From assembly GCF_000143415.4 (NCBI RefSeq), contig NW_003314261.1, positions 6,480,817-6,544,816 of the forward strand: a DNA stretch of 64,000 nt. The letters run 5' to 3'. Within the stretch, counting starts at the first letter, position 1, and each line of letters opens with the position of its first letter. The notes under the pieces were generated by a model. It saw only the letters and a program-made list of their open reading frames with translations. It did not search any database and had not been told where the DNA came from. This stretch comes from Selaginella moellendorffii (taxonomy: Eukaryota; Plantae; Lycopodiophyta). The position numbers were made by a program, and so were the translations under genes. Positions 24,454 to 49,418 of the stretch are shown here, piece after piece.

Positions 24454-27400
24454 TCATCAGAAACATGAGATAAGAGCGAAGAAGGAAGAGGAATTTGAAA
24501 AAGGGCATCAGCATCAACCATAGAACTCCTCAGGTGATAAACAATATCAAAATTATATATTTGAAGCTTCAGAGCCCACCAAGCAATATGACAAACCAAG
24601 TCTTCCGTTTCAATAATGAAGTAACTATAGCATGATCACCTTCTAATAATGTCTGAGAACTATGTAGATATACATGAAATTCCTCGAAACCTCAAACTAT
24701 TGTTAAACACTCATAATAGTTCACTTCCATTGGTTGTAATGTACGGTTAATATATGCAATAGGATGGAACTAACCAGGCATACTTGGGCTCTCTTGCATC
24801 AACACACCTCCAAAACTGACATGAAAAGCATTAATGCTCAAAATGAAAGGTCGAGTGTAGTCAGGATATGCTAAAACTAGAGGAGTCGTCAACAGCTCTT
24901 TGAGATCCATAAACGCCCCTCACAATCTACAAACCAGATGAAAAATGATGTTGATGACTTTAGTAACACTTACAACAATGCAGTGTGATCAGAAAGATGA
25001 TTAACAAAACAATCAAAATACTACACCTTGCCCAGGAAGTGTTGTACATCATTCATACACTTTGAAGTAGAGAACTTTAGAACAACCACAAGTTTGTCAG
25101 GATCAATTTGCAAACGCTCACAAGAAATATAATACCTAAGATAAGTTAGACCCAAACACGCACTTCAACCGCTTTAGTTTTAAACCAACTTCTCATAGCT
25201 GATCCAACACCTTACGAACATCACGGATGTATTCCTCCTATGTCCCCTTCAAGTGGATTAAGACATCATTAATGAAGTCAACAATCAACTTCGGTATATC
25301 GTAAAGAACTTTATCCATCATCCGCTAGAAAGTTGTTAGAGCATTGTTCAAACCAAATGCCAACACCAAGAACTTGTACAAATCAAATGATGTACAAAAA
25401 GCAGTTTTAGGAATATCTTCTTCAACTATTGATACTTGCTAGTACCCGAAAACAAGATGTAACTTAGTGAACTAACAACTTCTCTTTAGATGATCCAAGA
25501 AATCAGTAATGTAAGGAAGAGGGTACACATCCAGGATTATCACTTCGTTTAACGGACGATAGTCAATGCAAAAATGAATATTCCCATCAGGCTTCGTCAA
25601 GATGAGGTTCACACACCCAAGGACTCTATGACTTTTGAATAACTCCCTTTTCCAATATCTTTTTGACATTTACATATAAAATCTTGATCTATTTGGGTGA
25701 CTGGAGAAAAACAAAAACCTTAATTGGATGAGCATTCCTAATTGGAATAGGATGATGTATTGCAATTTTGGCCCCAGATGATAAGTCAAATTCAAAGAGA
25801 TTAGCATACTCCTTCATGAGTCAATCAACTGCTACAACACAAAGACTATCGAAGGGATTGGAAAAAGAAAGAGAGGAACAAGATAGAAAATATTTAAAAG
25901 TACAAGACATGGGGGAGAAACCTCAAAGTCACACTTGGCTTGATTGCGTTGCAACCAATCTATACTAAGGATGAGGTCAAAAACTTAACTTGGAACCACC
26001 CGTAATGATTGCAACTCAAGTTCAAAATCGTTTACACACACAATTAGGTCTGCCTCATCTCGCACACATGTGTGTATACAGTTGTTGCCATAAGGAATGA
26101 AAATTGGCTTTGCCACATGACGCAAATGCAAACAGCAACGTGTGGCAACAGGTCGAGCAATAGAAAATAAACTCAAACCTGTATTAATCAACACGAAGAG
26201 AATAATAGGAGACCTTTTGTTATAAAAACGAGTTTGGAAAATAAACACTGGATGAATTGGTGCCAAGTGAACCCCTTGATAATACTCTCGAAAGAAAAAT
26301 AGAGGAGTCACTAACTTATTCACAGAAGATCCCTTTACTATTCATATAACTCCTCATTTTCTGAATATATCTCGATGTTTAGACCTTCCACTACAGTAGC
26401 ATTAACAAACTATTGTTGACACCAAGGTCTCCACCAAGGAAATGAAGGTTGCTAATCTGAAAAACACTGACAACACCGATAAATATGACTAACTTCATCA
26501 TACTCCTAAGAATGGACTTCATAGCCACGACCATGTCCTCATACTTGTCCTTGAACTCGGGAAATCAACCTCCATTAGAATAGGACTATCTTCCACAGGA
26601 AGTAGAACTGAAGGACGTGTAGCAAGAAGTGGAAAAGGCGACGTTTTATAACGTTGTGCCAGGCAAAGGGCATTATCAAGGTGGCTGGGTGGCTGGAGCA
26701 AGTGCATCTAGAAGTCTTACAAGATCTTGACAAAGTGCTAGCCACAACATTTCCAGCTTGATCCGCTTTGACATATTTGGCTTCGCACGAAGCAAGAGGC
26801 TTCAGAAACAAATGATGCTCTATTTCGTTAAAATGGGATTTATTCAGTAAAATGGGACTAGGTACAAATTTTCAAGTATTTGAAAATGACGTGAAATTAT
26901 ATGTTTTTTGTCTAGGGGCTAGACATATCTGGGGCATGGTGACTAGCGCGGTGACTTTGTGTCCAGACTGAGTCCATCTGGTTGTATAATAAATCTCATT
27001 GTCAAGGTGAACAAGCCAAATCTGAAGCTAAAGAAGAGCGATGGCATGCGCGCACACACTATTTGTTTGTTTATTGAGCGTGTGGTGAGCTTTCCAAGAT
27101 GAACGTCATTCCTATTAGCCAAACATATAACTTAATGGTGAGAACATTTAGATATTATTCAATGTTATCTTTTTCTAACGAATCTAATTGTGAAGGTGTA
27201 GCAAGAGGCATTGCTAGTCTGGAGAAGTCATTTAACTCATTTGACCTTTAGTGTATTTTCATGAAACTAAATAACATTCATATTATTAAGGAATTTCTCT
27301 AGTACCTTTTTTTTACGACATAGAGGCTTGCATTTCTTTCAAAGGTGATTTAGTAAAAGGCCTGAGGGCACATGCCATTCTATTTCTCAGACCGGTATTA

Positions 27401-27474
27401 AGATATACTAGTGTAAAGGGAAAAAGGTATTTGGTGATCAAGTAAATGGCATGAGGGCACACGCCATTATAAGC

Positions 27475-27732
27475 CTAAGTGCTAGTGGACACCTCCTTTT
27501 TGGTACTCTTAGCGGTACTATCATCCTTCTCCGGGTCAGTTGTTTTGCTTTGGATTGTTGTCTCTGACGTTACTGGGGCATTCTCGATAGTTGTTAATGT
27601 TGCCGTTTGTTCAGAAAAATGATCACCTGGAGTATAGTACGGGGAGTTTGGAAGACTTATATATTCTACATCTTCACCTATCTCCTTCTCCGTCTCCTTT
27701 TTTGCCTCACTTACAGATTTTGTGCTTGCCAT
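27475..27732 (-). CDS. Small Ser/Thr/Glu/Lys-rich ORF, present only in copy 1
   Basis: MASTKSVSEAKKETEKEIGEDVEYISLPNSPYYTPGDHF... with coding-like composition. The segment is deleted in copy 2. Confidence 0.35.
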   Translation of the reverse strand: MASTKSVSEAKKETEKEIGEDVEYISLPNSPYYTPGDHFSEQTATLTTIENAPVTSETTIQSKTTDPEKDDSTAKSTKKEVSTST

Positions 27733-28445
27733 GAGAACGCTCTTCACCCTAAAATATGGAGTTCGTTGTGTTATAAAAGGAAACCAACACACACGCTACA
27801 AGGGAATGATGGTACATAAAGCACATAAGCCCACAATATGGGTTTATGTGCCATTAATATGGGCCACACGCCATATTATTAGATTTATGCACGTGTGATT
27901 AGTAAATGCATATGTCACATCATCTTTGTTTTACCTCACACACTATATCAGGCCTAATGAACCATATCACATGTGCGCACATGCTATATATATGGAGAAG
28001 TATTATGCAAGGATAGAAAAATTCAATGCATGATTGTGGAGAGCAATGGCATGAAGCCACATACTAAATAACATTTTAGAGAAAGAATTAAAATAAAAAC
28101 ATGCTAATAGTACTGAGTGGACCAAGACTTAGAAGTGCACAATTGAATGAGGTATTTCTAATAAATATTTCACTCACCTCATATAGGAATGGCTACCACT
28201 CTCAAATGGCGTATCGCCTCATGCCATCACCTCACAATTTGTTATAACAATCCGATGAATTCATATTCGGCTTGTTCACCTTGAACTTTAAGTAAGATTT
28301 GCTAGAACAACTAAGAATTTATACTTGTTATTTGTATCATCTCACCTAGGAATGGCATAAGGCCACATGCCATCACGCCTCCTCTGATTCAGATTCGGAT
28401 TGTTCACCTTGAAATAAAATACATTAGAAACTCAGTAAAGGAATA

Positions 28446-31261
28446 TTAATGAATCTCACCTTGAACCCGGGTTATGAATGCTCTTGCTACATCTCTTGCA
28501 TGGTCTGGCAAGGTGATGGTGGCACTCTGCTTCCGCATCCAACCATGCACAACATTACTCACCGATATGCTCATGCTGGGATCCCTTGGATTCAGCACCC
28601 ATCTCTTTTCTAGGCAATCCTTCGTATATCCGGAACTTGGCTTGAACCACTCCACAGTTACATTGAAGGAGTTAGTTTCCGCGTCCTCCTCTGCATCAGT
28701 GATGCAGTGCCCCACACATATCATTTGTTTATTACTGGGTCTGACAAGCACGACCATTCCTTTGCAGACCTGTACTGGATTGAATGCTGAATCCGGATTT
28801 TTGTTCCTCGGCCCACAATAGTGATCCTCAACATCGTTATCTGTCACTGCATTTCTAGAGGACATTGTTCCGCTACTATCTGGTGCTCTGGGTTCTGGCC
28901 AAAAGGACTCTTCCAATTCTTCATATACAACCGGCCCATTTTGGATAGCAGATATAATCTTCTCCCAGTATTCGAGTAAAGGCTTGCACCTCTTAAAATA
29001 GGATTCTCCACCAAACACCAACCCCCTCTTCCAGAAGGCAATATGCTATCTAATCCCGGCCACTATACTTTCCTGGTCTTTGAGTCCATCCGGGTGCATC
29101 AGCCGTGGGGAACCCTGAGGAATCATAGGTTCCCCAGTTATGGGATCTCTCTTGAAGAGTTTAATGCCGTCCACTGGCAGCCACACTGTGTCCCATTCTC
29201 TCATCTTGTACCTCATCACTAGAGCACCGTCACGCATGCTGAAATGAAATTGAAGAGGCTTGGAGTGGCCAATCAGCATTTCGGATCCGTCCCTGATGTA
29301 GCCTCTTACAAACCCCTTAAAGTCTGGAACCTCTGTCACAAGTGCAGCTTCAACAGTGCCTTTGATGCAATTTTGGAATTCATCGTAGAGTTGTGGGAGG
29401 GTGAGGACATTGGATCGCCGGAGGGACTCTGCCAGGTGACTGAACATGGCATCGACGTCTTCATGAGTGTGCCCAACCATGAGAAAGCCAAGTGTAACCG
29501 TTTCAAATATGCCTTTGGCAACAAGCATCGCCAAGTACGCGAAGACGTACATGTTTTTGTTCTCACTGCCAGCATTGTCTGTTTGGAGCAGAAGATGGGG
29601 TGGAAGGCCACATCGGCCGCAAGAACTTCCTTGAGATTCTGCTTCGTTTGGATGAGGCTGTGCATTCACCGGGCGACCAGCCTCGTCGGAATGGCATGAG
29701 GCCTCACGTGATAACCCTACAATCTGACGGCCAACATATTCACTGGGATGGCATGGGGCCCCACGTGATACTGCAAGCCTTTGCTCCTCCTCCAGCTGAA
29801 CCCTGTATGGGGTTCGATCGACAAGGGCCTTATGCAAGGGTTGGCCGTTCAGCTCAGTCTGCGCACTTTGCAGAGACCTTAAGTGTTTTGCTAGGGACGC
29901 AATCATCATGTTTGCACCCCCGCCACCCCATAGAGGTACAAAGAAGTTCCCATAGTTCTGGGCACCATGCCCATGAGCGATTATGCCAAACAGAGACACA
30001 GGCAGCTGCATGGATGAAGAGATTGCCTTGGGGGCAGGATTGAGTCGAGGTAAGCACGTCTTTTTCTGGTCCATTTTGTCGTGGATGATGCAGAGGTAAG
30101 AGTCAGGTCTCTCCATGGAGAGAATCCTGTTATGATAATATGCAGTCCTGCAGCTTCTCTGCTCGATGTTGTGGTCGAGCCGCCTTCTAACCAACGTCTC
30201 TCGCTCTTGAGCGCTGCAAGAATTCTTCGACAAAGCCATTTTGATAGCAGTGCACTCGTCACACTTTGAAAAGCTGGAGTACTTTCCTATACTCACATCC
30301 CTGAACCTGTTGCTCCACAATCTACTAAATCTAGATTGGCTCAGCTTCCTGTAGCCATTACTCTGGAGTTCCCGATTCACATCTTCCAATATGGCCCCCT
30401 TGGTATACATGGAAGGGAGAACTCATTGGGTGTCTCGAGTTCCATCTTCCAAGAGGCGGGTTTTATGTGGTTGCTGCTCGCTACATGTCTCGACAAACCT
30501 CTTGAAGATTGCCTCTCCATATACAACATGACCCCTGGTTTTGTGAGTACCGTCGTTCCCATGGATTGCCTGTTGAACCCTTTGTTCCTCGAACTCAGTT
30601 TTGATTCTGTAGAATGTGGTTCAAGGGACTCCATAAATGATTCTCCATGCCTTCATGCAGACCAAACCCCTCTGGAAGACCATGCCCCCCACCTGATGTT
30701 CTGAAGCATCAACAGATGACCGTAATACACAAAATTGCGAGCTACCTTCCAGGACAATGTCTTGTATCTTGCTCTCTCCTCTTCAATAGCATCCCAATCA
30801 GCATATTCACAGCACCTCCTCTTGCAACAAGCAACTGTTGAGACCATTCGAACCTCCATCGCCATTTTCTGCCTTTTCAGTTCGTTGCTCAGATCCCTTT
30901 GGCTGCGCTTTAGGAAGGTGTACTTTCTTTTCCCATGAAGAGATGTTCTGTCATCAGTTGTAGTGGTGTTTGATTGTGAATCCTTCACATTCTCAAACAC
31001 TAAGTGCCTCAATTTCCACCGCACAATGCTTCCAATAGTCAGATTGTTTTCTTTTGTGTCAACAACCTCTAAAATCGCAACTCCAATATCATCCCAGCCC
31101 AATTCTTGATTAGCAACCGCATCTCTTGGATCGACAACTGTGGCTAAACCCTCAGCTACCACCTCCCCCTCGGGGTTGTTTAGAAACACCTTTGCCTGAA
31201 TCCATGTAGCACGGTTCTTAAGATCCACGGAGGGAACATGCGTCGCACTTGCGGAGGCCAT
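28446..31261 (-). pseudogene. Transposase of copy 1, disrupted by a frameshift at ~30726 and a stop at 29046
   Basis: ORFs 30653-31261, 29046-30410 and 28446-29021 join into a protein near-identical to the 907-aa ORF of copy 2. Retains the natural N-terminus MASASATH. Confidence 0.9.
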
Positions 31262-31799
31262 TCTGAAAGTGCAGAAAAGAAGTTAAGACCATACAAAAAA
31301 TGATTGGAGAATGGCCTAAATCATAACATACCAAACAACCTCAATAGCATGAGGCCTCATGCCATCTTGATATACACACAGCTGCAGGCAAGTAAAAACA
31401 TACATGACAATACGCTAGCCATGAAATTGCAAGGGCCCAAGATGGCATGTGGCCTCATGCCATTTCTAAATGTGGTCCTAAGCCATTCCATGGTGAACAT
31501 ACCAGGAAGCACAAGTGCCGAATATCAAGAGGAAGCGGTAGCCACACCAAAGACAGTGCCGCTTGCAACACCGCAACTACTCATAGCGCCGCTCGCAACA
31601 CTGCAACTGCTCGTAGCGCCGCTCGCACAAACTGCCACTCGCATAAACTGTCGCTCGCAATGGCGCTCGCAATGCCGCAACCGCTCGTAGATGCATAAAC
31701 CACAGCTCACAACGCCGCTTACACAAGTAGCGCTCACTGCGCTCAGCGGAACCAAGAACACAGCGCACAAAAATGATAGACCTAGGAATGAGTTCGAGA

Positions 31800-33720
31800 A
31801 TTCAAAAATAACACACGCTTGAACGTCACATCAAATCCTCTGACAAACCAGATCTTATGATTCCTTTGACAAATTTCAAACTGAGTAGCTTCTAGACTTT
31901 GCTGTCGGAGGTTGAACTTTGTCACATCATGTCCTTGCCTCGATCCAGCTGTGCCATGTCAATGATTCGAACTTTGCCATGCCATGTCAGCGATCCGCAC
32001 CAAGATTATTCGCCGTGTAAAGGAATAATTATGCTGTGTGTGTATGTCCATTTATGGCAATATAAGGCCACACGCCATTCAAAGAATAATGCTAGTCAAG
32101 CATTTTTTGGTGCATTTTTGGGTTCAAAATTGCATGAGCCCACACGCTATAAAGTTTACCTGTACCAAAAATAGAAACAGCTTTATTTACTTGGGAATTT
32201 AAGTGGTTGAGGCATTTTTAAATTTACAAACACATGCCCTACTTACATTCCTTTGGTTGCTTAAAATTCAAAAATATTATAAACCTTTCTTTTTGCATTT
32301 TCAATGTTTTCAATTATGGTTTTTGATTTTCGCAGGATTAGCCTAGTAATCTATTTGCATCTCGTCATGTTTATAGCTAGCTTTCGTTTGTCCCCTTCGT
32401 TAGCCTGAGATACATCTGCTCAGCATCTGCCTCTTACAGCATTTGCCCAGAAAGGGCATCTTTCTTCACGCAGCATTTGCCACATATTTAGGGTTTAGGG
32501 TTTAGGGTTTAGCAATTCAGTAGCTTGATGCAAAATCCTTTGATATGTCACAATGCCCCTAGGACCATAAACACATTTCAATAGAGAGGGTCCTTTCATT
32601 TTATAACTCCTTACGTAGATCTTAGTGAAACCAGAGTTTGTGAAGTTAGTTTCTTGTGATCCCGCATCTGATTGTGATGTCCCTTTGAAGTGTCGATGGA
32701 AAGGTCAATGCACACCAAACTGTAAAATCTTGGAGCAAAATAACGGTCGGATCTATGGCAAATGCCCCTGAAACATTGTAAGGCTCGTGTGGTCTCATGT
32801 GGTGTCCGATCGAGATGCTTCTTTGCAGGGTCATCAAGAAAGGCATTGTATACCATTCTGTAAAATCTAGTTGCGATCTAACAGTTGGATCTCCAGAAAA
32901 CACAACAAAATCTCGCGTGTGTTAGAATATTCTAGGAATATACTCCTATGTGCCCCTGAAAATGGCATGCGGCCCCACGCTATTCAAGAGATAACGCCAG
33001 ATGACGCTGAGCATTTTTTGGTGCATTTTTTGGGATCAAAATTGCATGAGCCCACACGCTTGAACGTCACATCAAATCCTCTGACAAACCAGATCTTATA
33101 ATTCCTCTGACAAATTTCAAACTGAGTAGCTTCTAGACTTTGCTGTCGAACGTTGAACTTTGTCACATCATGTCCTTGCCTCGATCCAGCTATGCCATGT
33201 CAGTGATTCGAACTTTGCCATGCCATGTTAGCGATCCGCGCCAAGATTATTCGCCGTGTAACTGCTCGGCATCTGCCTCTTACAGCATTTGCCCAGAAAG
33301 GGCATCTTTCTTCACGCAGCATTTGCCACTTATTTAGGGTTTAGGGTTTAGGGTTTAGCAATTCAGTAGCTTGATAAACATGCAAATACAGAACTTGATG
33401 CAAAATCCTTTGATACGTCAGGACCATAAACACATTTCAATAGAGAGGGTCCTTTCATTTCATAACTCCTTACGTAGATCTTGGTGAAACCAGAGTTAGT
33501 GAAGTTGGTTTCTTGTGATCCCGCTTCTGATTGTGATGTCCCTTTGCAGTGTCGATGGAAAGGTCAATGCACACCAAACTGTAGAATCTTGGAGCAAAAT
33601 AACGGTCGGATCTATGGCAAATGCCCCTGAAACATTGTAAGGCTCGTGTGGTCTCATGTGGTGTCCGATCGAGATGCTTCTTTGCAGGGTCATCAAGAAG
33701 GACATTGTATACCATTCTTT
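31800..33720. repeat. Internally duplicated non-coding block of the transposon, with (TTTAGGG)3 tracts
   Basis: 31813-32018 repeats at ~33053-33260 and 32415-32860 repeats at ~33262-33718. Telomere-type repeats at 32487-32512 and 33333-33358. Confidence 0.85.
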
Positions 33721-34379
33721 ATTTAGCTGAAAATCTGGCATTTTTGGAAATACAAGATGCTTTGGAATATCCAATCATGCATGGTATAAATATAGCGAGG
33801 GTATTAAATGATATCCCAATCATGATCTTTCTTTTGGATTTCGCGTGTATGCAGTCCGAGGAATGATGACGTTGCGGATTTCTTTTGGATTTCACGTGCA
33901 TGCATGCGCGCGGCGATCCAGAAATTAATGGTGGCGCCCAAGTCCGAGGAATGATGACGTTGCGGGATTACCAACCGTCGTGACATTTCGCGCGTGTGAG
34001 GTTAGGTTTTGCATTTTGCTTCGTACTCGCGCTCGCATCGCGCTCCCACTCGCGATCACGCTCATATTTGCGCTCATCTACCTTCTCTACAGCTTTCTCG
34101 TGTGCATCGGCGTCCACTCGTGCTTGCATCACACTCGCGCTCGCATCGCGCTCGTTTGCATCGGTGTCCACTTCAAGACACACCCAGTTTGTAACTTCGC
34201 CGCCAACTTCGCCGCCCACTCCGCCACCCACACGCAGCCCACTTGGCGTCTCGGGAGATTTCAGCGCCACTCTCCAACTGTAAGTGGCAGAGTAGCCTTG
34301 CTGCTACGATCCGCTGCACACACAGTGCACATTCGCCAGCGAGTCCGGCCTCGATTGTCACGCCTCCATTCGGCTTCAA

Positions 34380-37300
34380 ATGGTAAGTCTTTTAGGCCAA
34401 GTAGAAAATGGCATGAGGCCACATGCCATTCAGTAGCAACATTGGCATGCACCAATTGGGCTCTCAAGTGCAGTCCGGTTACAGATGGCATGTAGCCTCA
34501 CGCCATCTTAGGATGCAGCCTCAAGACATCTGATGTAGTGGTGAATAGCGTATGGCCTCACGTTATTTCCAGCTGCTAGCTTTTCATCTGTCAGCTCTAA
34601 TTGTTGTGCATTTCTGAACAGGCGAGGAATTGCGTTCTTCTTCCAGCCACTGTCAATGTGGATGTAGAGAAGGGGGAGGAGCTCACCAGTTGGACTTTCG
34701 GGATGGAAGGCGAGGATCTGAGGCTGTACAACACAGATGGTGGGAGAAAAGAATGCATGGGGATCCTCATCCAAGTGACAGACACTCCATGCAGTTCCAT
34801 GCAAGAATATGGACTAGCACTTGTGGTAGAGACAGCGTCTGCCTTCAAGATCCACCTTGCACATCCTAGTGGCTTCCCGGAGGGGGGCAGCGGCTATGAG
34901 GAATTCCTAGAGGGAGATAGGGAGAGGTTGTCTAGGAGGCCCACAATTTCAAAGATGCTGCGGGTCTATGAAGATCACATGGAATCCACGGACCTCACCT
35001 ACGGCGATGTTCAAAAACTATATTCCAACATTGAGCCATTGAGAGTGCCTCCAGTTCGCGAAGCGAAGGGGAAGGGGGTCGATCTGGAAACTACCCCGAA
35101 GCAGAAAAGGGTGGTCAAGCTCAAGCCGACGTCCGACTCTCCTACTCCAAAAAAGAAGCTACTCGGTGATGCCATTGCCTCGAGTTCGAACACTACACCC
35201 ACCAAAAAGAAGAGCCGCAAAGAGCAGAAAGAGCAAGAAGAGGCAGCAAAAATCGTCGCAGATAATAGTACTTGTTACTATTCCAACAAAGTATATACAA
35301 TCGATGTGAGCCGTATCGACATCCAAAGCAAATACAACCACAAGCTAGTATCTGATGAGTGGGTGGAGAAACTGAAGCAGAAGATGCTGGCAAGTCCAGT
35401 AACACCCGACATCGCAGACGTGATCCCCTACTACCGAACAATGAAGGGCAAGACGAGGTTTCCAGACTTGATCAATAGGAAGGTGTTGGACGATCAGAAC
35501 ATCCGGTTCTATGCCGTCTCCGGGCAGCATTCTAGCTTGGTGATGCAAGAGATAGTTGTGGATATTATGGTGGGCGAGGAGGTGAAGAAAGTCTTCAAGA
35601 CAAGAGTTGTCCGCCTGATAAAAGGCAACTCGCCCCTCCGATCTATCATATACATCTCCCACGCACAGAATGTCAAGCAAGAAACGTGCTACAAATCGGG
35701 TCTGCACGAGACATTGGCACGAACACGGAAGCTCTGGGTTCAACTAAAGAAGCCACAAAAACCAGGACAAGGACGTGCACTAGCAACTAGCGCCTAGCAG
35801 GTAAGCCTCGTTGCATGTGGCATAGCATGTGGCCTCACGCCATTTCCATTGCAGAAATTCTCGAGTCTTCTCTCGAAAACACTGGGGGTCAATGACACAC
35901 TCAGCATCCATAACATTCTACTCGCGACAAAAGTTGTTTTTGACAAATGGGTAGATGTGCTGAGGAGGTACCATGACGGGGAGTTGCTAAACTCAATGGG
36001 TGTGGAGGATGGCCGGAAGCCCAATGATTTGAAGCTCAACGCCTTGCGTTTCTCGCGGTCTCTAGACGACGACGACCTTTTGACAGTGGCTAATGCTCTT
36101 CTACGTGGTGAGGTAGTCTTCAACAAGACCAAAATGACTCCCGGCCATATTGTGACATACGAGGACTTGTGCACGACTCAGAGAGCTCGTGCGCTATTGA
36201 AGGATTGGATCTTCGAGCAAGTGGCCGTGGAGAGGGTGAGCATCGACACCACGCAAGAGATGATGGAAGAGCTGGAGTTGTCAAATGAAGACATCGACGA
36301 GTACGTGAAGGGGGCCCCCAAGTTCATCGATCTGCTGCGGGATGCCACGAAAAGTAAAGCTGAGAAGTTGGATCAGTATCCAAATTTCATTAAGATTGAT
36401 GTCGACCGCCGGCTTCAGAAACAGCTCGACCCCGCAGCAGAGGCATATCGAGAACCTTACCGGGTATACGTGAATTCGGATGAGGATCAAAGGTGGAGGA
36501 GCATCGTTTCCCGCGGAGATGAGCAGGTCAAGAACATCTTTTGTGTGATGGACTTCACAAACGAGGAGATCACTCATGCAGACGAAGTCAGCTCCATCAT
36601 TGACTTAATGGTGGGACTTGCGGAGGTGGAATCTTCAGTCCACTATATGATCTACGACTCCGAATCCTATCACAAGTTCTAGAAGGCCTTGAATGAGGTG
36701 AAGGCTCGGTTGAAAGGCAAGGAGATGCGGGAGATCCATGGGATAATGGCTAAGAAGAAGATACCGACGAATGTCCGCATCTTCACACTCGCCCTTATTA
36801 TTGGTCCTGCAGCAGAGTGGGACTGGAGTGACTTCCTAGCTTCGTTCGACAAGGCCGATCGAATTGATCTGAGGGAGGTCAATTTACCCATGCCTGAGGA
36901 ACTAAAGACGGCTATGGAGCTTTCGAATCCAGAGAAAGCTCCAAGTGCAGCATGGGAAATGCTCAGCTGGGTCTTCAATGCAATAGCGGGTGGGTCACCT
37001 GCTTCCGACTCCAAGGGCAAATGCATTGTCGAGTACAACTGCGGCGGACTATTCTTTCGAGCCGCACTACTCAAGGGTGTCCCGTGTGTTGCGGTGACAA
37101 ACTCCATTGAAGAGGTGACTTCAATGGAGCATATAATTATAGTTGCCAAAGAAAACCAATATCTTCTCTGCGAACCTAATGAGTACGCACTTTAAGTTTA
37201 AATGTTATCTCACAAGCTTTGTATGCAGGAGCATGGCCACCCCCAGATGCTGAAACGGCGTTAACAACTACTGTTGAAGATACCCATGTTGGGCCGAGCT

Positions 37301-38432
37301 CACAACCTGCACAAGGTAAGGTCACGTGAGGCCTCACGCCATTTTGATTATAGATCGTTGTGAATATTCAGACACGAGGACTGAAAAGCGCACTGGTGGC
37401 GCGTCGAAGAAGGACAAACAGACAAGCGATAGGAAAAAAGGAGGTATAAATTATATTTGCAATGCCGTGTGGTCTCATGCCATTCCTTGCAGGAGACACT
37501 TCTTCAAAGGCAAAACAGGCAAGCACCAGCCAAGCTCAAACTGACAGTGGTCATAGAAAGCGAAAGCACGTTGGACAGTCGTCGGGATCAGAGGCGTTTG
37601 ATTCGAAAAGGAAGAAGGGCAACGAAAAGATGATAGGTAATGCCTCGCGGTTATGGCGTGTGTGCTCATGCCATTCATTGCAGATCAAGGGCTGAGTGAA
37701 AGCAGCCAGTCACCACCTCCTGACTCAGATTCCTATGGCGGACTCCCCTTCCCCAATCTCAATGGAGAGGTACAATGGATGAGGGATGCTTTTCAAGTCA
37801 GGGCCACGTTTTTCTCATCTTGTCGTCTTCGAAGGGTGCAAGAACGTGCAGAAACCATGTTAAGACAGTCGGGTGAGGATACGGTCCTAGGTCACGCACT
37901 AAAACAGGCTATGGATGTCTTGTATTTTGAGATGGAGACTCGGCCAGATGATTTTCCCAAGATGGTCCTGGAAGAACAAGCCATCCAGCCTGAGCAGCCT
38001 ATGGAAGAAATGCAGGAAGGGGATGAGGAGCCAGAGAAAGATAATGAGCAGGAAGAGCAGAAGGACGAAGAGGAGGACAAAGAAGAGGAGGATGAAGAAG
38101 AGGAGGACGAAGAGGACTTGGATGGTCCTCACAATGTTGACGATCACAATATCAACGACGACGATGATGACGACGATGGCCAGCCTGAGGTGGCCAAAGA
38201 GCAGCGGAGGAAGGTCATACAAGACAAACCATCAAGTAAATAATAGTACATCCATTCCTAACCTTTTACCATTTCTACAATTGTCCATGTAGGTCGCAGA
38301 GCAAATGGTAAGTAGAGATTATTCAGTTGAATTAAGATACAAACTCTAGCCTTTAGTGTCGAGGAAGGATAGTGCCAAGCAAGGGTCGAAACGTATGTCC
38401 AATCCTTAAGAATCAGCAGTGCGCCCAAGTGA
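34380..38432 (+). pseudogene. Transposon accessory gene A, copy 1: ParB/Srx-like domain + degenerate N6/N4 DNA-methyltransferase-like fold + acidic tail (multi-exon)
   Basis: ATG|GTAAGT at 34380, then exons 34622-35800 and 35855-37178 followed by short exons. Motifs VYTIDVSRI...FYAVSGQHS, VKNIFCVMDFTN and NPEKAP...KCIVEYNCGGLFFRAALLKGVPCVAV. Stops at 35795 and 36680 correspond to TGG in copy 2. Confidence 0.7.
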
Positions 38433-38560
38433 TATCGGTCCTAGTTCCTCAATAGCAGTTGGTGGTAAATACAATATAGTCGATTCAATGTGCTAATGAG
38501 TTTGTTTTTAGTAGCCAGTAGGGAGGATACCATCTCAATCGAAGGGAGATATTTGGGCAT

Positions 38561-39983
38561 ATGGATCCGCCAGTGGACTCTACTTGCCTACAAGAGTCAT
38601 TAGAGCTGGTGGAGGCTACTATCCATATCAACACCAAGCAAGCTGACCACGCTCCACTTGATGCTGCCCATACCACTGAGTCAATCTTGTCCACGTATCC
38701 AACTGACGGTGACCAGGCGCTATTGAACCCGCATGAGGCCACCCCAGCCGCCGAGCCGGTCATATCCTCATTTCCAACAGACTCAACGTGTGCCCAATCG
38801 TCTGACTACGCGCCGTTGGAACCTCCCTACACCGCCCCTGCTGCCTGTTCGGTCATGTCCACTTTGCCAACGGAGGCACCAGCTGAAATGGCGTGTGATC
38901 ACACGCCATCGGAACCACCCCATGCCACTGTTGAGCCAGTTGTACCAGAGTCTACAGCTGAAATGGCATGTGCCCACACGCCATCGGATGCGATTGACCC
39001 CACATTGCAGAGGAGAGTATTTCCGCCCTTCACGTTTTCTCGACCAAAACCCTCTCAACGACCATCGGGAGCACCATTCGCTAATATTGTAGATGGTAAA
39101 ATTGACTTGTACCATTTTTTATGCTGACGCATTTCATTTCAGAGTCACAGTGAAGGTACTATATCGTTTTTGATCTGAACGGTGTCCTTTTCTCCCATGA
39201 GCGTGGCTCATCCTCGAATGTCACTGCACCCTCTAAAGCCTGCGGTCGCAAGTTGGTCAAAAGAGACAGATTCACATTAATCACACGGGAGAAACTGCGG
39301 GATTTAATAATGACCATGCGACACTTAAAACAGAGGGCCGGGTTCAATTTGCAATTGGGAGTTTGGACATCCATGATGCGCCACAATGCATTAACATTGC
39401 TACAAATGATGCACGATCAGACGCGAGTAATATTACCATTTGACTTTCTCCTAACGCAGGAGGATTGCTTGACTATGGTCCATGTGAGGGGTAGCAAGCC
39501 CATCTTCGTCAAGCCAGAGGCTGTAGTGATGAACCGGACTGTTAGGTCAAGTGAAATCCTCATCATCGATGACTCGCCGATTAAAACTGCGGCGAACACG
39601 CACACATATGCAGTGCACCCCATCTCTTGCAGTATGGAAACTAGGGAGAAGAAACCGTATGTTCTGGGGGACCTTGCAAAACGGCTTGGAGCGATGGTGA
39701 TAGAGAACCGGCTAGTCCAGGAGGTAACTGCAGAAATCAACCAAATGGCAGATGGAACGGTATATCAGAAGCTATTTGATCGGACAGACACCAGCCATCA
39801 TTTATGGCATATATATTGTCTAGCCAAGCACTATCCGCATCTCCATAATCTGCTCAACTAGATGGGTTCTTTGACCACTGAACATGAGCGTGGACGTATT
39901 AGAGAAGAGATGGCATTACTATTGGGTTTAAATCCTGATAGTGTGGAGAGTGATGAAATTCCAAGATTATTGTATAGGCGTTG
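38561..39983 (+). pseudogene. Transposon accessory gene B, copy 1: FCP1/NIF-type HAD phosphatase, interrupted by copy 2
   Basis: Pro/Thr-rich exon 1, intron ~39095-39142, then IVFDLNGVLF, LGVWTS and ILIIDDSPIKTAAN. Contains premature stops; the last codons resume at 52836. Confidence 0.8.
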
Positions 39984-40425
39984 AAGCTCTATTTCGTTAA
40001 AGTGGGAATTGTCATTATCCCACTTGTAAAATAAGGTTTCCAAACCTTTATATAGTATATAAATATAACAAAATTCAACTGCATTGAGGCACATGCCATT
40101 TTATTTTAAACAAGGAAATGTCTACTCAATCACTTCTCCTCCCCCTGCCACTGCTTCACCTCTCTCTTCTCCTTGTCATCGTCGTCCAATTTCTTTCCAT
40201 CCTTTTAATATTGGCTCAGTTGCTCCGAGTCTAGGTGGAGCCCAAGTCCCCATTCAATCTTTACTTTCCCATTATTAATAAAACAACTTCGTAGACTTCC
40301 AATAACATGCTGTAACACTTCTAATATAATGCAAATCCTCTCAAAGAATTGTCTTTTAATATTAATACAATGGCATGGAACCCCATGCCATAATAAGTTA
40401 CATTTTTAAATAAATACATGCCATC

Positions 40426-41795
40426 TCAGACTGTTATTTTTTGCCTCCAACGCCTATACAATAATCTTGGAATTTCATCACTCTCCACACTATCATGATT
40501 TAAACCCAATAGTAATGCCATCTCTTCTCTAATACGTCCACGCTCATGTTCAGTGGTCGAAGAACCCATCCGGTTGAGCAGATTATGGAGATGCGGATAG
40601 TGCTTGGCTAGACAATATACATGCCATAAATGATGACTGGTGTCTGTCCGATCAAATGGCTTCTGATATACCGTTCCATCTGCCATTTGGTTGATTTCTG
40701 CAGCCACCTCCTGGACTGGCCGGTTCTCTATCACCATCGCTCCAAGCCGTTTTGCAAGGTCCCCCAGAACATACGGTTTCTTCTCCCTAGTTTCCATACT
40801 GCAAGAGATGGGGTGCATTGCATATGTGTGCGTGTTCGCTGCAGTTTTAATCGGCGAGTCATCGATGATGAGGATTTCACTTGAGCTAGCAGTCCGGTTC
40901 ATCACTACAGCCTCTGGCTTGACGAAGATGGGCTTGCTACCCCTCACATGGACCATAGTCAAGCAATCCTCCTGCGTTAGGAGAAAGTCAAATGGTAATA
41001 TTACTCGCGTCTGATCGTGCATCATCTGTAGCAACGTTAATGCATTGTGGCGCATCATGGATGTCCAAACTCCCAATTGCAAATTGAACCCGGCCCTCTG
41101 TTTTAAGTGTCGCATGGTCATTATTAGATCCCGCAGTTTCTCCCGTGTGATTAATGTGAATCTGTCTCTTTTGACCAACTTGCGACCGCAGGCTTTGGAG
41201 GGTGCAATGACATTCGAGGACGAGCCACACTCATGGGAGAAAAGGACACCGTTCAGATCAAAAACGATACAGTACCTTCGCCGTGACTCTGAAATGAAAT
41301 GCGTCAGCATAAAAAATGGTACAAGTCAATTTTACCATCTACAATATTAGCGAATGTTGCTCCCGATGGTCGTTGAGAGGGTTTTGGTCGAGAAAACGTG
41401 AAGGGCGGAAATACTCTCCTCTGCAATGTGGGGTCAATCGCATCCGATGGCGTGTGGGCACATGCCATTTCAGCTGGTGCCTCCGTTGGCAAAGTGGACA
41501 TGACCGAACAGGCAGCAGGGGCGGTGTAGGGAGGTTCCAACGGCGCGTAGTTAGACGATTGGGCACACGTTGAGTCCGTTGGAAATGAGGATACGACCGG
41601 CTCGGCGGCTGGGGCGGCCTCATGTGGGTCCAATGGCGCCTGGTCACCGTCAGTTGGATACGTGGACAAGATTGACTCAGTGGTATGGGCAGCATCAAGT
41701 GGAGCGTGGTCAGCTTGCTTGGCGTTGATATGGATAGTAGCCTCCACCAGCTCTGATGACTCTTGCAGCCAAGTAGAGTCCACTGGCGGATCCAT
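40426..41795 (-). CDS. Accessory gene B, copy 2, apparently intact: Pro/Thr-rich N-terminus + FCP1/NIF HAD phosphatase
   Basis: Exon 41795-41336, a 47-nt GT-AG intron, then exon 41288-40426. HAD motifs CIVFDLNGVLF, LGVWTS, IFVKP and ILIIDDSPIK..N. Confidence 0.8.
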
Positions 41796-41924
41796 ATGCA
41801 TGTCCAAATATCTCCCTTCGATTGAGATGGTATCCTCCCGTGCTACTAAAAACAAACTCATTAGCACATTGAATCGACTATACTGTATTTACCATCAACT
41901 GCTATTGAGGAACTAGGACCGATA

Positions 41925-44900
41925 TCACTTGAGCGCACTGCTGATTCTGAAGGATTGGACATACGTTTCGACCCTTGCTTGGCACTATCCTTCCTCGACA
42001 CTAAAGGCTAGAGTTTGTAAATTCAACTGAATAATCTCTACTTACCATTTGCTCTGCGACCTACATGGACAATGTTAGAAATGGTAAAAGGTTAGGAATG
42101 GATGTATTATTATTTACCTGATGGTTTGTCTTGTATGACCTTCCTCCGCCGCTCTTTGGCCACCTCAGGCTGGCCATCGTCGTCATCATCGTCGTCGTCG
42201 TTATTGTGATCGTCACCATTGTGAGGACCATCCAAGTCCTCTTCGTCCTCCTCTTCTTTGTCCTCCTCTTCGTCCTTCTGCTCTTCCTGCTCATTATCTT
42301 TCTCTGGCTCCTCATCCCCCTCCTGCATTTCTTCCATAGGCTGCTCAGGCTGGATGGCTTGTTCTTCCAGGACCATCTTGGGAAAATCATCTGGCCGAGT
42401 CTCCATCTCAAAATACAAGACATCCATAGCCTGTTTTAGTGCGTGACCTAGGACCGTATCCTCACCCGACTGTCTTAACATGGTTTCTGCACGTTCTTGC
42501 ACCCTTCAAAGACGACGAGATGAGAAAAACGTGGCCCTGCCTTGAAAAGCTTCCCTCATCCATTGTACCTCTCCATTGAGATTGGGGAAGGGGAGTCCGC
42601 CATAGGAATCTGAGTCATGAGGTGGTGACTGCCTGCTTTCACTCAGCCCTTGATCTGCAATGAATGGCATGAGCACACACGCCATAACCGCGAGGCATTA
42701 CCTATCATCTTTTCGTTGCCCTTCTTCCTTTTCGAATCAAACGCCTCTGATCTCGACGACTGTCCAACGTGCTTTCACTTTTTATGACCACTGTCAGTTT
42801 GAGCTTGGCTGGTGCTTGCCTGTTTTGCCTTTGAAGAAGTTTCTCCTGCAAGGAATGGCATGAGACCACACGCCATTGCAAATATAATTTGTACCTCCTT
42901 TTTTCCTATTGCTTTTCTGTTTGTCCTTCTTCGATGCGCCACCAGTGCGCTTTTCAGTCCTCGTGTCTGAATATTCACAACGATCTATAATCAAAATGGC
43001 GTGAGGCCTCACGTGACCTTACCTTGTGCAGGTTGTGAGCTCGGCCCAACATGGGTATCTTCAACAGTAGCTGTTAACGCCGTTTCAGCATCTGGGGGTG
43101 GCCACGCTCCTGCATACAAAGCTTGTGAGATAACATTTAAACTTAAAGTGCATACTCACTAGGTTCGCAGAGAAGATATTGTTTTTCTTTGGCAACTGTA
43201 ATTATATGCTCCATTGAAGTCACCTCTTCAATGGAGTTTGTCACCACAACACACGGGACACCCTTGAGTAGTGCGGCTCGAAAGTATAGTCCGCCGCAGT
43301 TGTACTCGACAACGCATTTGCCCTTGGAGTCGGAAGCAGGTGACCCACCCGCTATTGCGTTGAAGACCCAGCTGAGCATTTCCCATGCTGCACCTGGAGC
43401 TTTCTTTGGATTCGAAAGCTCCATAGCCGTCTTCAGTTCCTCAGGCACGGGTAAATTGACCTCCCTCAGATCAATTCGATTGGCCTTGTCGAACGAAGCT
43501 GAGAAGTCACTCCAGTCCCACTCTGCTGCAGGACCAATAACAAGGGCGAGTGTGAAGATGCGGACATTCGTCGGTATCTTCTTCTTAGCCATTATCCCAT
43601 GGATCTCCTGCATCTCCTTGCCTTTCAACCGAGCCTTCACCTCGTTCAAGGCCTTCCAGAACTTGTGATAGGATTCGGAGTCGTAGATCATATAGTGGAC
43701 TGAAGATTCCACCTCCGCAAGTCCCACCATTAAGTCAATGATGGAGCTGACTTCTTCTGCATGAGTGATCTCCTCGTTTGTGAAGTCCATCACACAAAAG
43801 ATGTTCTTGACCTGCTCATCTCCGCGGGAAACGATGCTCCTCCACCTTTGATCCTCATCCGAATTCAAGTATACCCGGTAAGGTTCTCGATAGGCCTCTG
43901 CTGCGGGGTCGAGCTGTTTCTGAAGCCGGCGGTCGACATCAATCTTAATGAAATTTGGATACTGATCCAACTTCTCAGCTTTACTTTTCGTGGCATCCCG
44001 CAGCAGATCGATGAACTTGGGGCCCCCTTCACGTACTCGTCGATGTCTTCATTTGACAACTCCAGCGCTTCCATCATCTCTTGCGTGGTGTCAATGCTCA
44101 CCCTCTCCACGGCCACTTGCTCGAAGATCCAATCCTTCAATAGCGCACGAGCTCTCAGAGTCGTGCACAAGTCCTCGTATGTCACAATATGGCCGGGAGT
44201 CATTTTGGTCTTGTTGAAGACAACCTCACCACGTAGAAGAGCATTAGCCACTGTCAGAAGGTCGTCGTCGTCTAGAGACCGCGAGAAACGCAAGGCGTTG
44301 AGCTTCAAATCATTGGGCTTCCGGCCGTCCTCGACACCCATTGAGTTTGGCAACTCCCCGTCATGGTACCTCCTCAGCACATCTACCCATTTGTCAAAAA
44401 CAACTTTTGTCGCGAGTAGAATGTTATGGATGCTGAGTGTGTCATTGACCCCCAGTGTTTTCGAGAGAAGACTCGAGAATTCCTGCAATGGAAATGGCGT
44501 GAGGCCACATGCTATGCCACATACAACGAGGCTTACCTGCCAGGCGCTAGTTGCTAGTGCACGTCCTTCTCCTAGTTTTTGTGGCTTCTTCAGTTGAACC
44601 CAGAGCTTCCGTGTTCGTGCCAATGTCTCGTGCAGACCCGATTTGTAGCACGTTTCTTGCTTGACATTCTGCGCGTGGGAGATGTATATGATAGATCGGA
44701 GGGGCGAGTTGCCTTTTATCAGGCGGACAACTCTTGTCTTGAAGACTTTCTTCACCTCCTCGCCCACCATAATATCCACAACTATCTCTTGCATCACCAA
44801 GCTAGAATGCTGCCCGGAGACGGCATAGAACCGGATGTTCTGATCATGCAACACCTTCCTATTGATCAAGTCTGGAAACCTCATCTCGCCCTTCATTTTT

Positions 44901-45958
44901 TGGTAGTAGGGGATCACGTCTGCGATGTCGGGTGTTACTGGACTTGCCAGCATCTTCTGCTTCAATTTCTCCACCCACTCATCAGATACTAGCCTGTGGT
45001 TGTATTTGCTTTGGATGTCGATACGGCTCACGTCGATTGTATATACTTTGTTGGAATAGTAACAAGTACTATTATCTGCGACGAATTTTGCTGCCTCTTC
45101 TTGCTCTTTCTGCTCTTTGCGGCTCTTCTTTTTGGTGGGTGTAGTGTTCGAACCCGAGGCAATGGCATCACTGAGTAGCTTCTTTTTTGGAGCAGGAGAG
45201 TCGGACGTCGGCTTGAGCTTGACCACCCTTTTCTGCTTCGAGGTAGTTTCCAGATCGACCCCCTTCCCCTTTGCTTCGCGAACTGGAGTCACTCTCAACG
45301 GCTCAATGTTGGAATATAGTTTTTGAACATCGCCGTAGGTGAGGTCCGTGGATTCCATGTGATCTTCATAGACCCGCAGCGTCTTTGAAATTGTGGGCCT
45401 CCTGGACAACCTCTCCCTAGCTCCCTCTAGGAATTCCTCATAGCCGCTGCCCCCCCTCCGGGAAGCCGCTAGGATGTGCAAGGTGGATCTTGAAGGCAGA
45501 CGCTGTCTCTACCACAAGTGCCAGTCCATATTCTTGCATGGAACTGCATGGAGTGTCTGTCACTTGGATGAGGATCCCCATGCATTCTTTTCTCCCACCA
45601 TCTGTGTTGTACAGCCTCAGATCCTCACCTTCCATCCCGAAAGTCCAACTGGTGAGCTCCTCCCCCTTCTCTGCATCCACATTGACAGTGGCTGGAAGAA
45701 GAACGCAATTCCTCGCCTGTTCAGAAATGCACAACAATTAGAGCTGACAGATGAAAAGCTAGTAGCTGGAAATAACGTGAGGCCACACGCCATTCACCAC
45801 TGCATCAGATGTCTTGAGGCTGCATCCTAAGATGGCGTGAGGCTACACGCCATCTGTAACCGGACTGCACTCGAGAGCCCAATCGGTGCATGCCAATGTT
45901 GCTACTGAATGGCATGTGGCCTCATGCCATTTTCTACTTGGCCTAAAAGACTTACCAT
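41925..45958 (-). pseudogene. Accessory gene A, copy 2 (ParB-like + methyltransferase-like), with two homopolymer frameshifts
   Basis: ORFs 45438-45737, 43865-45481, 43143-43970 and 42110-42502 are colinear with copy 1. Relative to copy 1 there is a +1 at ~45450 and a -1 at ~44020. Confidence 0.7.
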
Positions 45959-46629
45959 TTGAAGCCGAATGGAGGCGTGACAACCGGACTCGCTGGCGAA
46001 TGTGCACTGTGTGTGCAGCGGATCGTAGCAGCAAGGCTACTCTGCCACTTACAGTTGGAGAGTGGCGCTGAAATCTCCCGGGACGCCAAGTGGGCTGCGT
46101 GTGGGTGGCAGAGTGGGCGGCGGAGTTGGCGGTGAAGTTACAAACTGGGTGTGTCTTGAAGTGGACGCCGATGCACACGAGTGCGATGCGAGCGCGAGTG
46201 TGATGCAAGCGCGAGTGGACGCCGATGCACACAAGAAACTTGTAGAGAAGTGGGAGCGCGAGTGGGAGCGCGATGCGAGCGCGAGTGGGAGCGCGATGCG
46301 AGTGCGAGTGTGCGAGCGCGAGTACGAAGCAAAATGCAAAACCTAACCTCACACGCGCAAAATGTCACGACGGTTGGTAATCCCGCCACGTCATCATTTC
46401 TCGGACTTGGGCGCCACCATTAATTTCTGGATCGGCGCGCGCATGCGTGAAATCCAAAAGAAATCCGCAACGTCATCATTCCTCGGACTGCATGCACGCG
46501 AAATCCAAAAGAAAGATCATGATTGGGATATCATTTAATACCCTCGCTATATTTATACCATGCATGATTGGATATTCCAAAGCATCTTGTATTTCCAAAA
46601 ATGCCAGATGTTCAGCTAAATAAATTGTC

Positions 46630-48790
46630 AGAGGATGACGTTCAAGCATGTGGGCTCATGCAATTTTGATCCCAAAAAATGCACCAAAAAATGCTCAACG
46701 TCATCTGGCGTTATCTCTTGAATGGCGTGGGGCCGCATGCCATTTTCAGGAGCACATAGGAGTATATTCCTAGAATATTCTGACACGCGCGAGATTGTTT
46801 TGAGTTTCCTGGAGATCCAACCGTTAGATCGCAACTAGATTTTACAGAATGGTATACAATGTCCTTCTTGATGACCCTGCAAAGAAGCATCTCGATCAGA
46901 CACCACATGAGACCACACGAGCCTTACAATGTTTCAGGGGCATTTGCCATAGATCCGACCGTTATTTTGCTCCAAGATTCTACAGTTTGGTGTGCATTGA
47001 CCTTTCCATCGACACTGCAAAGGGACATCACAATCAGATGCGGGATCACAAGAAACCAACTTCACTAACTCTAGTTTCACCAAGATCTACGTAAGGAGTT
47101 ATGAAATGAAAGGACCCTCTCTATTGAAATGTGTTTATGGTCCTAGGGGCATTGTGACATATCCAAGGATTTTGCATCAAGTTCTGTATTTGCATGTTTA
47201 TCAAGTTACTGAATTGCTAAACCCTAAACCCTAAACATGTGGCAAATGCTGCGTGAAGAAAGATGCCCTTTCTGGGCAAATGCTGTAAGAGGCAGATGCC
47301 GAGCAGATGTATCTCAGGCTAGTGAAGGGGACAAACGAAAGTTAGCAACCAAAGGAATGTAAGCAACCAAAGGAATATAAGTAGGGCATGTGTTTGTAAG
47401 TTTAAAAATGCCTCAACCACTTAAATTCCCAAGTAAATAAAGCTGTTTCTATTTTTGGTACAGGTAAACTTTATAGCGTGTGGGCTCATGCAATTTTGAA
47501 CCCAAAAATGCACCAAAAAATGCTCGACTAGCATTATTCTTTGAATGGCGTGTGGCCTTATATTGCCATAAATGACACAGCATAATTATTCCTTTACACG
47601 GCGAATAATCTTGGAGCACATAGGAGTATATTCCTAGAATATTCTGATACGCGCGAGATTGTTTTGAATTTCCTGGAGATCCAACCGTTAGATTGCAACC
47701 AGATTTTACAGAATGGTATACAATGTCCTTCTTGATGACCCTGCAAAGAAGCATCTCGATCGGACACCACATGAGACCACACGAGCCTTACAATGTTTCA
47801 GGGGCATTTGCCATAGATCCGACCGTTATTTTGCTCCAAGATTCTACAGTTTGGTGTGCATTGACCTTTCCATCGACACTGCAAAGGGACATCACAATCA
47901 GATGCGGGATCACAAGAAACCAACTTCACTAACTCTGGTTTTACCAAGATCTACGTAAGGAGTTATGAAATGAAAGGACCCTCTCTATTGAAATGTGTTT
48001 ATGGTCCTAGGGGCATTGTGACATATCAAAGGATTTTGCATCAAGTTCTGTATTTGCATGTTTATCAAGCTACTGAATTGCTAAACCCTAAACCCTAAAC
48101 CCTAACCCTAAACATGTGGCAAATGCTGCGTGAAGAAAGATGCCCTTTCTGGGCAAATGCTGTAAGAGGCAGATGCCGAGCAGATGTATCTCAGGCTAGC
48201 AAAGGGGACAAACGAAAGCTAGCTATAAACATGACGGGATGCAAATAGATTACTAGGCTGGTCCTGCGAAAATCAAAAACCATAATTGAAAACATTGAAA
48301 ATGCAAAAAGAAAGGTTTATAATATTTTTGAATTTTAAGCAACCAAAGGAATGTAAGTAGGGCATGTGTTTGTAAGTTTAAAAATGCCTCAGCCATATAA
48401 ATTCCCAAGTAAATAAAGCTGTTTCTATTTTTGGTACAGGTAAACTTTATAGCGTGTGGGCTCATGCAATTTTGAACCCAAAAATGCACCAAAAGATGCT
48501 TGACTAGCATTATTCTTTGAATGGCATGTGGCCTTATATTGCCATAAATGGACGTACACACACAGCATAATTATTCCTTTACACGGCGAATAATCTTGGC
48601 GCGGATCGCTGACATGGCATGGCAAAGTTCGAATCACTGACATGGCACAGCTGGATCGAGGCAAGGACATGATGTGACAAAGTTCAACCTCCGACAGCAA
48701 AGTCTAGAAGCTACTCAGTTTGAAATTTGTCAAAGGAATCATAAGATCTGGTTTGTCAGAGGATTTGATGTGACGTTCAAGCGTGTGTTA
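46630..48790. repeat. Internally duplicated non-coding block of copy 2, with CCCTAAA tracts
   Basis: ~46750-47340 repeats at ~47615-48220. CCCTAAA tracts at ~47217-47235 and ~48081-48112. Duplication breakpoints differ from copy 1. Confidence 0.85.
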
Positions 48791-49260
48791 TTTTTGAATT
48801 CTCGAACTCATTCCTAGGTCTATCATTTTTGTGCGCCGTGTTCTTGGTTCCGCTGAGCGCAGTGAGCGCTGCTTGTGTAAGCGGCGTTGTGAGCTGTGGT
48901 TTATGCGTCTACAAGCGGTTGCGGCATTGCGAGCGCCATTGCGAGCGGCAGTTTATGCGAGTGGCAGTTTGTGCGAGCGGCGCTACGAGCAGTTGCGGTG
49001 TTGCGAGCGGCGCTACAAGTAGTTGCGGTGTTGCGAGTGGCACTGTCTTTGGTGTGGCTCCTGCTTCCTCTTATCATTCGGCACTTGTGCTTCCTGGTAT
49101 GTTCACCTTGGAATGGTTTAGGACCACATTTAGAAATGGCATGAGGCCACATGCCATCTTGGGCCCTTGCAATTTCATGGCTAGCGTATTGTCATGTATG
49201 TTTTTACTTGCCTGCAGCTGTGTGACTATCAAGATGGCATGAGGCCTCATGCCATCTTTG

Positions 49261-49398
49261 GCCCCTACTCACCTATTGCCATATTCCTTTTGCCTTGCTG
49301 CAACTGTATATATTTTTGTATGGGTGACTAGTCACGCACACAAAAATATATCCAGTTGCAACAAGGCAAAAGGAATATAGCAACAGGCTAGCAGGGGC
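49261..49398. mobile_element. 138-bp foldback (MITE-like) element replacing the 5' end of the copy 2 transposase
   Basis: GCCCCTACTCACCTATTGCCATATTCCTTTTGCC...GTGACTAGTCAC...GGCAAAAGGAATATAGCAACAGGCTAGCAGGGGC is a near-perfect palindrome. It is absent from copy 1. Confidence 0.75.
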
Positions 49399-49418
49399 TA
49401 AACAACCCCGAGGGGGAG

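Follow-up and report, generated by a model that had tools for sequence, protein, structure and literature searches.

A predicted ParB-fold gene with a degenerate methyltransferase-like domain, and a palindrome array, in a Sola-like transposon of Selaginella moellendorffii

A 64,000-nucleotide stretch of the Selaginella moellendorffii genome (the window; RefSeq assembly GCF_000143415.4, contig NW_003314261.1, positions 6,480,817 to 6,544,816) contains two nested copies of a Sola-like DNA transposon, each of which carries, opposite its transposase gene, a second gene, here called gene A. Gene A is tentatively interpreted as an accessory gene of this plant transposon, encoding a non-catalytic scaffold that would bind 22-bp palindromes of its own element and keep the element expressed or mobile. 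Within the window the palindromes are confined to the element, and the methyltransferase (MTase) motifs of gene A are altered in both copies and in the majority of sequence reads. The ParB fold, the MTase ancestry and a spliced fusion to an FCP1-like domain are model-based predictions.

Comparison of the window with itself revealed a large inverted duplication, which, read from its ends, proved to be one transposon present twice. Copy 1 (26815-53300, forward strand) has about 13.6 kb of its own sequence (26815-39983 and 52836-53300), flanked by the target site duplication (TSD) AATG (26811-26814 and 53301-53304). Copy 2 (39984-52831, reverse strand, 12,848 bp) sits in the last exon of gene A of copy 1, between TSDs GTTG (39980-39983 and 52832-52835). 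The 26-kb inverted structure is thus an element copy that jumped, in opposite orientation, into another copy, with both TSDs intact. The left terminal inverted repeat (TIR) of copy 1 is about 24 bp long (26815-26838, forward strand) and has partners at 53277-53300, 39984-40007 and 52808-52831. The transposase gene is divergent from gene A, on the opposite strand. In copy 1 it is broken (28446-31282, reverse strand, head-to-head with gene A), and in copy 2 it has an open 916-codon frame (49392-52142, forward strand) that matches DUF7869 (PF25273, E = 4.9e-43). DUF7869 is probably a Sola-type transposase domain, and the acidic motifs at 50499, 51000 and 51114 of copy 2 are presumably its DDD triad. 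The TIRs and 4-bp TSDs found in both copies fit the Sola assignment, as a 4-bp TSD is the rule for Sola transposons (PMC3627910; also PMC12477816). Both copies show methylation-type decay, with 4-5% at CG and 2-5% at CHG per copy versus <1% at CHH. In one public run, 28,084 contigs map to the region, which suggests a multi-copy family, the figure not being a copy number; their majority sequence lacks the first stop of copy 1. The end of the transposase (51800-52100, forward strand) encodes a small beta-rich domain that resembles, by eye, a Tudor- or chromo-type reader and has no Pfam match.

The palindrome, ATGGCRTG-W-GGCC-W-CAYGCCAT, occurs from 27041 to 52913. At four mismatches, copies 1 and 2 have 22 and 19 sites and the other 37 kb of the window none, and at three mismatches or fewer all 35 sites fall within the element, compared with 0 in 100 shuffles. 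Most sites are non-coding (18/22), and 7/9 of those in gene A lie in its introns, which account for only 695 of 5,604 nt. Sites cluster by the 3' end of the transposase gene and in both subterminal regions, and are also spread through the introns of gene A, far from the ends; the palindrome and the TIR have no visible sequence in common. This layout is what would be expected of a private binding site, by analogy with the motifs of VANC, the anti-silencing proteins of Arabidopsis VANDAL elements, for which binding and demethylation have been demonstrated (PMC5735166). VANC, too, is an accessory protein encoded by its element, and its short, element-specific motif is situated mostly in non-coding parts, introns included; the palindrome array shows the same non-coding enrichment. 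However, VANDALs belong to the Mutator superfamily and their motifs are non-palindromic, 8-9 bp long and in tandem repeats; the comparison is one of function only, and no homology is claimed. The gene A protein is likely to bind the palindromes of its own element. Among the four coding palindromes, two (29691-29769) are in an insertion within the DUF7869 region of the transposase, and the other two (38888-38984) fall in exon 10 of gene A, in a 75-nt repeat present once in copy 2. The intergenic region of the divergent genes (31812-33721 and 46625-48787) contains duplications, 200-700 bp long and specific to each copy, with palindromes and a short TTTAGGG telomere-like run.

In copy 1, gene A is a pseudogene (34380-39983, forward strand). 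A splice model predicts 11 exons (34380-82, 34622-35800, 35855-37178, 37229-37315, 37372-37443, 37493-37636, 37684-38235, 38293-38307, 38357-38464, 38512-39095 and 39143-39983), with the last codons at 52836-52857 and a product of about 1,620-1,640 aa. The 10 predicted introns, nine of them 47-57 nt long, are phase-compatible, and the frame runs from the ATG at 34380 to an HAD domain. The original prediction, made from sequence and open reading frames, placed a ParB/Srx domain fused to a degenerate beta-class DNA MTase at 35280-37140. That interval does lie in gene A, but the gene runs well past it on both sides. There, copy 1 has one frame (35291-37105, forward strand) interrupted by two TAG stops (35795 and 36680), neither of which is present in the read majority, and by an in-frame intron of 54 nt (35801-35854). 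The quoted peptides are in this one frame (VYTIDV at 35291, SGQHS at 35519-35533, CVMDFTN at 36542-36562, NPEKAP at 36926-36943 and EYNCGG at 37031-37048), and most were correctly located, but NHRL and YRVYLN belong to copy 2 (NHKL and YRVYVN in copy 1). The lesions of the two copies had been described as complementary, and gene A of copy 2 (45958-40426, reverse strand) is in fact damaged at other points than that of copy 1: it has frameshifts near 45456 and 44022 and stops in exons 6 and 7, and 10/10 of its predicted introns are GT-AG. The loss of the ParB P-motif arginine, a helical domain between the ParB and MTase parts, a likely FCP1-like continuation and the prior publication of this architecture for algal transposons had all escaped notice. 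No splice joints were found in two RNA runs picked by guess, and none of the runs listed as containing the sequence is recorded as RNA.

A phmmer search of 1.84 billion proteins with the gene A region gave 10 matches at E<=0.001, eight of which are true relatives; the other two (P0003 and P0004) were dropped, their matches being driven by repeats or low complexity. At 19-28% identity, the relatives extend over all three parts (ParB, helical middle and C-terminal); S. moellendorffii LOC9650508 and a protein of Calypogeia fissa are the named ones. Together with the fold of the N-terminal domain, these eight homologues indicate that the observation is more than a chance resemblance. The best match is LOC9650508/SELMODRAFT_409495 (P0002; E = 1.3e-9, 27% identity), an uncharacterised protein that resembles gene A in its helical domain and degenerate, PPY-lacking MTase-like domain, but whose annotation lacks most of the ParB domain. 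The P0002 cluster (LOC9650508, LOC9646204) comprises four near-identical records on two scaffolds, with the frame intact and the MTase-like domain degenerate; it may be either a relative that the host has retained or an element gene with incomplete annotation. The Calypogeia homologue P0006 (ParB and middle part) is closest by features to Atlas clusters of DUF3723 and a sponge-rich cluster; its values against the DUF3723 clusters are 0.92-0.93, with 143-151 of 256 features shared, below the 170 typical within one family. DUF3723, a conserved gene of Starships, is possibly a remote accessory gene with a ParB fold; the Starship preprint likens it to SMC, with no mention of ParB. Word-index protein searches returned no match, or the homologue P0007 itself alone, and nothing meaningful came from PDB sequence, PHROGs, NCBIfam, PADLOC and phage tblastn searches. 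A metagenome scan with the homologue P0015 gave one glycosyltransferase locus, which was rejected.

The N-terminal domain of gene A (35264-35683, forward strand) folds, as a predicted model, onto ParB/Srx structures, which places it in that fold and agrees with the original prediction. The Box I Arg position is at 35339-35347, an invariant Asn is at 35669-35671, and the P-motif reads SGQHS (35519-35533), in a register based on the established motif and the modelled strand-helix position, not on a residue-level superposition. Across homologues that are 24-28% identical, SGQHS is invariant, as are 11 further positions. The GxxR arginine of the ParB CTPase clamp is gone, with GQHS in 9/9 rows, and canonical CTP switching is probably absent from the protein. 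With hhalign, the gene A family matched 14 phage ParB_N domains at a probability of only 0.25; because this set-up missed even the structurally supported ParB link, it is insensitive at such distances. The ParB part is followed by a conserved, well-modelled helical domain (35855-36440, forward strand; predicted local distance difference test (pLDDT) mostly 68-91) at the place occupied by the helix-turn-helix in ParB, Noc and KorB; it is a candidate DNA-recognition part. Fold searches gave it no match, but their lists were taken up by the C-terminal part and hardly probed the middle.

The MTase-like domain (36452-37160, forward strand) is altered at each of three motifs. At motif IV (DFTN, 36551-36562) the Asp is kept and PPY is lost, the equivalents in three distant homologue groups being DSAN, DLRR and DATT. 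At the FxGxG position of motif I (EYNCGG, 37031-37048) a one-residue deletion shortens the glycine loop and the acidic residue is kept, and the motif II Glu position is a Thr (near 37097) in the best-scoring window (P = 0.023). All three alterations are present in both copies and in the read majority, and that of motif IV also in distant homologues; between the read majority and copy 2 the domain has seven differences, none within the motifs, and read variants are few. As the read majority has the altered motifs too, their loss belongs to the family and is not decay of these copies. The domain is thus likely to be catalytically dead on sequence grounds, in line with the changes from DPPY to DFTN and from FxGxG to YNCGG in the original prediction, which also raised a possible role as a DNA or modified-base reader; motif II is now added to these changes.

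MTase ancestry of the domain is very probable. The Atlas model of P0002 (pTM 0.44) aligned with PF01555 in 8/10 structure rows, of which one reached the naming bar; TM scores by query were only 0.36-0.41. Both P0002 (E = 8e-6) and P0015 (E = 1e-4) have the stretch around motif I in common with the window protein. A KP-like helix start ahead of motif I is retained in P0015 and P0007, as part of KP-helix-strand remnants, and the confident helices and strands of the window model follow the beta-class order. For the motif I-II block, the top-scoring window coincides with the originally predicted placement, if weakly (P = 0.023), and in a gapped block test P0015 is in register (P = 0.017; control 0.027). 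The proposed beta-class MTase is thus backed by the P0002 model, by motif remnants in beta order and by the Sola precedent described below, but not by any direct match of the window protein. A structural match was obtained for ParB/Srx, but neither ParB nor MTase gave a significant profile match, and no MTase fold was recovered with the window protein. PF01555 had no match at E<=5 in window pieces or in 19 homologue sequences, and hmmsearch with a profile from 48 of 70 phage beta-MTase domains found none either.

A basic, acidic and Pro-rich linker, predicted to be disordered (exons 4-10, 37229-39095, forward strand), leads to an FCP1/NIF-like HAD domain in the predicted last exon (39143-39983, forward strand). 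PF03031 matches it above cut-off on copy 2 (26.4 bits versus 21.8). The catalytic motif of FCP1/NIF HAD phosphatases is DxDx(T/V), from which the DLNGV found at this position in both copies departs.

This design is already known from algae, where there is apparently a working version. Ectocarpus Sola1-1_Ec32 carries, opposite its transposase, an accessory gene with ParB-like and N4C/N6A MTase domains, proposed to bind its own element; the authors cite Iyer 2011 and PAG3 of Bostrychia, a ParB fusion with adjacent inverted repeats (PMC12477816). Gene A shares with it the Sola-type element, the 4-bp TSD, the opposite strand and the order of ParB before MTase-like domain. The Selaginella element is however smaller (13 kb versus 21.5 kb, with a TIR of about 24 bp versus 282 bp), and has a predicted FCP1-like fusion and a palindrome array, the latter not mentioned for Sola1-1_Ec32 in the accessible text. 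Its MTase and ParB motifs are altered, whereas the Ectocarpus gene is predicted by its authors to encode a producing enzyme. The accessory proteins PAG3 and PAG2 of Plavaka, a giant DNA transposon of Bostrychia (10.1101/2025.02.11.637652), are ParB-like and have inverted-repeat arrays as their proposed sites, but Plavaka is of the EnSpm superfamily, its ParB is fused to a 2-oxoglutarate oxygenase, its adenine methylase is a separate gene and its repeats are in tandem beside the gene. Phage fusions of ParB_N and N6_N4_Mtase (10.1101/2025.10.10.680097, PMC4738411) have the same domain order, and clusters of them are among the Atlas matches of P0002; they keep GxxR (14 examples) and DPPY (70 examples), lack the long helical middle part, and have no significant sequence link to gene A. 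A chlorophyte Dam that carries a helix-turn-helix of the ParB kind and inactive MTase domains in DIRS1 elements have also been described (Iyer 2016, PMC4738411). Repbase reports, subscription journals and bioRxiv supplements aside, the literature yielded no report of a degenerate ParB-MTase gene in land-plant transposons.

In the proposed mechanism, whose steps beyond the domain anatomy we infer, the protein would recognise the palindrome as a dimer through its ParB and helical parts, coat its own element and so help its expression or mobility. Further DNA contact would come from the dead MTase fold, and contact with the RNA polymerase II tail from the FCP1-like domain. The role would be VANC-like anti-silencing, without S-adenosylmethionine-dependent methylation. 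Several results weigh against this interpretation. CG/CHG decay is not lower near palindromes (11/175 versus 112/1396, in two dead copies), and the palindromes could just as well be bound by the transposase. The block tests (P = 0.017-0.027) are matched by a transposase control (0.027), the MTase-like part of the window protein is modelled poorly (pLDDT <50 at residues 265-398), four fold searches with the middle-plus-MTase model returned no class I amino-MTase, and this part has no Pfam, PHROGs, NCBIfam or PADLOC match. With hhalign, its family probability against 48 phage beta-MTase domains was 0.09 and shuffles scored higher, while held-out true MTases were recovered in 4/4 cases at 99.7-99.9. 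The splice model into the FCP1-like domain is without RNA support from the two guessed runs. Between the gene A copies there is no excess of synonymous change, nor is there in the transposase. The raw pN/pS (nonsynonymous to synonymous) ratio of 0.49 was rejected as a sign of selection, since simulation of the same mutation spectrum expects 20.8/60 synonymous changes and 21 were seen; the middle domain alone gave P = 0.044 in one of seven tests. Two recent dead copies cannot show selection in either direction.

The palindromes might instead be docking sites of the transposase, with gene A a helper acting by protein contact or non-specific DNA binding. The clustering of sites near the transposase 3' end and the subterminal regions, the altered P-motif and the sequence-specific activation of cognate copies by a Mutator transposase alone, as stated in a 2026 preprint (10.64898/2026.08.24.746577), are compatible with this, but it is unlikely given that the palindrome is unlike the TIR and dispersed in gene A introns, and that in red algae elements of a different superfamily combine ParB-bearing genes with inverted-repeat arrays. 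It is improbable that gene A is a vestigial passenger, left over from a ParB-methylase that was once active and carried along when a single master copy recently amplified. A canonical catalytic residue is missing in all three recognisable domains, no selection signal separates the copies and read variants are few, as such a relic would have it; yet the invariant SGQHS and 11 other positions, a read majority free of the two copy 1 stops and 10 canonical introns in copy 2 are hard to reconcile with it.

Two further alternatives concern the C-terminal alpha/beta domain. That it is not derived from an amino-MTase, so that only the ParB part of the interpretation holds, is also improbable in view of the P0002 model on PF01555, the KP-helix-strand remnants in P0015 and P0007 and the published architecture; the hhalign failure is a weak argument for it, as the same set-up missed the ParB link. 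Conversely, the protein might still be an active N6-methyladenine/N4-methylcytosine methylase with non-canonical motifs, marking the element that encodes it, in the way proposed for algae (PMC12477816). The motif IV Asp and the acidic residue of motif I are kept, but this is very doubtful with PPY gone, a shortened glycine loop and Thr for the motif II acidic residue in the window protein, and with residues after the motif IV Asp that differ in each homologue group. The preferred scaffold interpretation can be carried further, into a speculative and on the whole unlikely form: a triple pseudo-enzyme (ParB without the P-motif Arg, MTase without DPPY, HAD with DxN) descended from a phage-type ParB-methylase writer would read a parS-like intron palindrome and tether RNA polymerase II, amounting to bacterial-derived anti-silencing independent of VANC, possibly with a host-retained Selaginella relative and a possible distant link to the Starship gene DUF3723.

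According to the algal proposals, a transposon may use its ParB-fused accessory protein to locate its own DNA and mark it chemically. In the present lineage the ParB fold and a palindrome array are kept and the methylase motifs lost, which suggests that the core job is binding, not methylation. With a defined protein and a defined 22-bp site, self-recognition and anti-silencing could be tested directly in a plant outside the seed plants.

Elsewhere the window contains spliced genes, a BTB/BACK gene and retroelement remains. An exon of the host BTB/POZ gene (8459-9301, reverse strand) has BACK and MATH-like matches, and a 96-bp tandem repeat of 4.1 copies (20986-21383), GC-rich and partly self-complementary, lies beside an assembly gap. 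A Ty3/gypsy integrase C-terminal remnant (SH3_Tf2-1) is found at 56702-57364 on the reverse strand.
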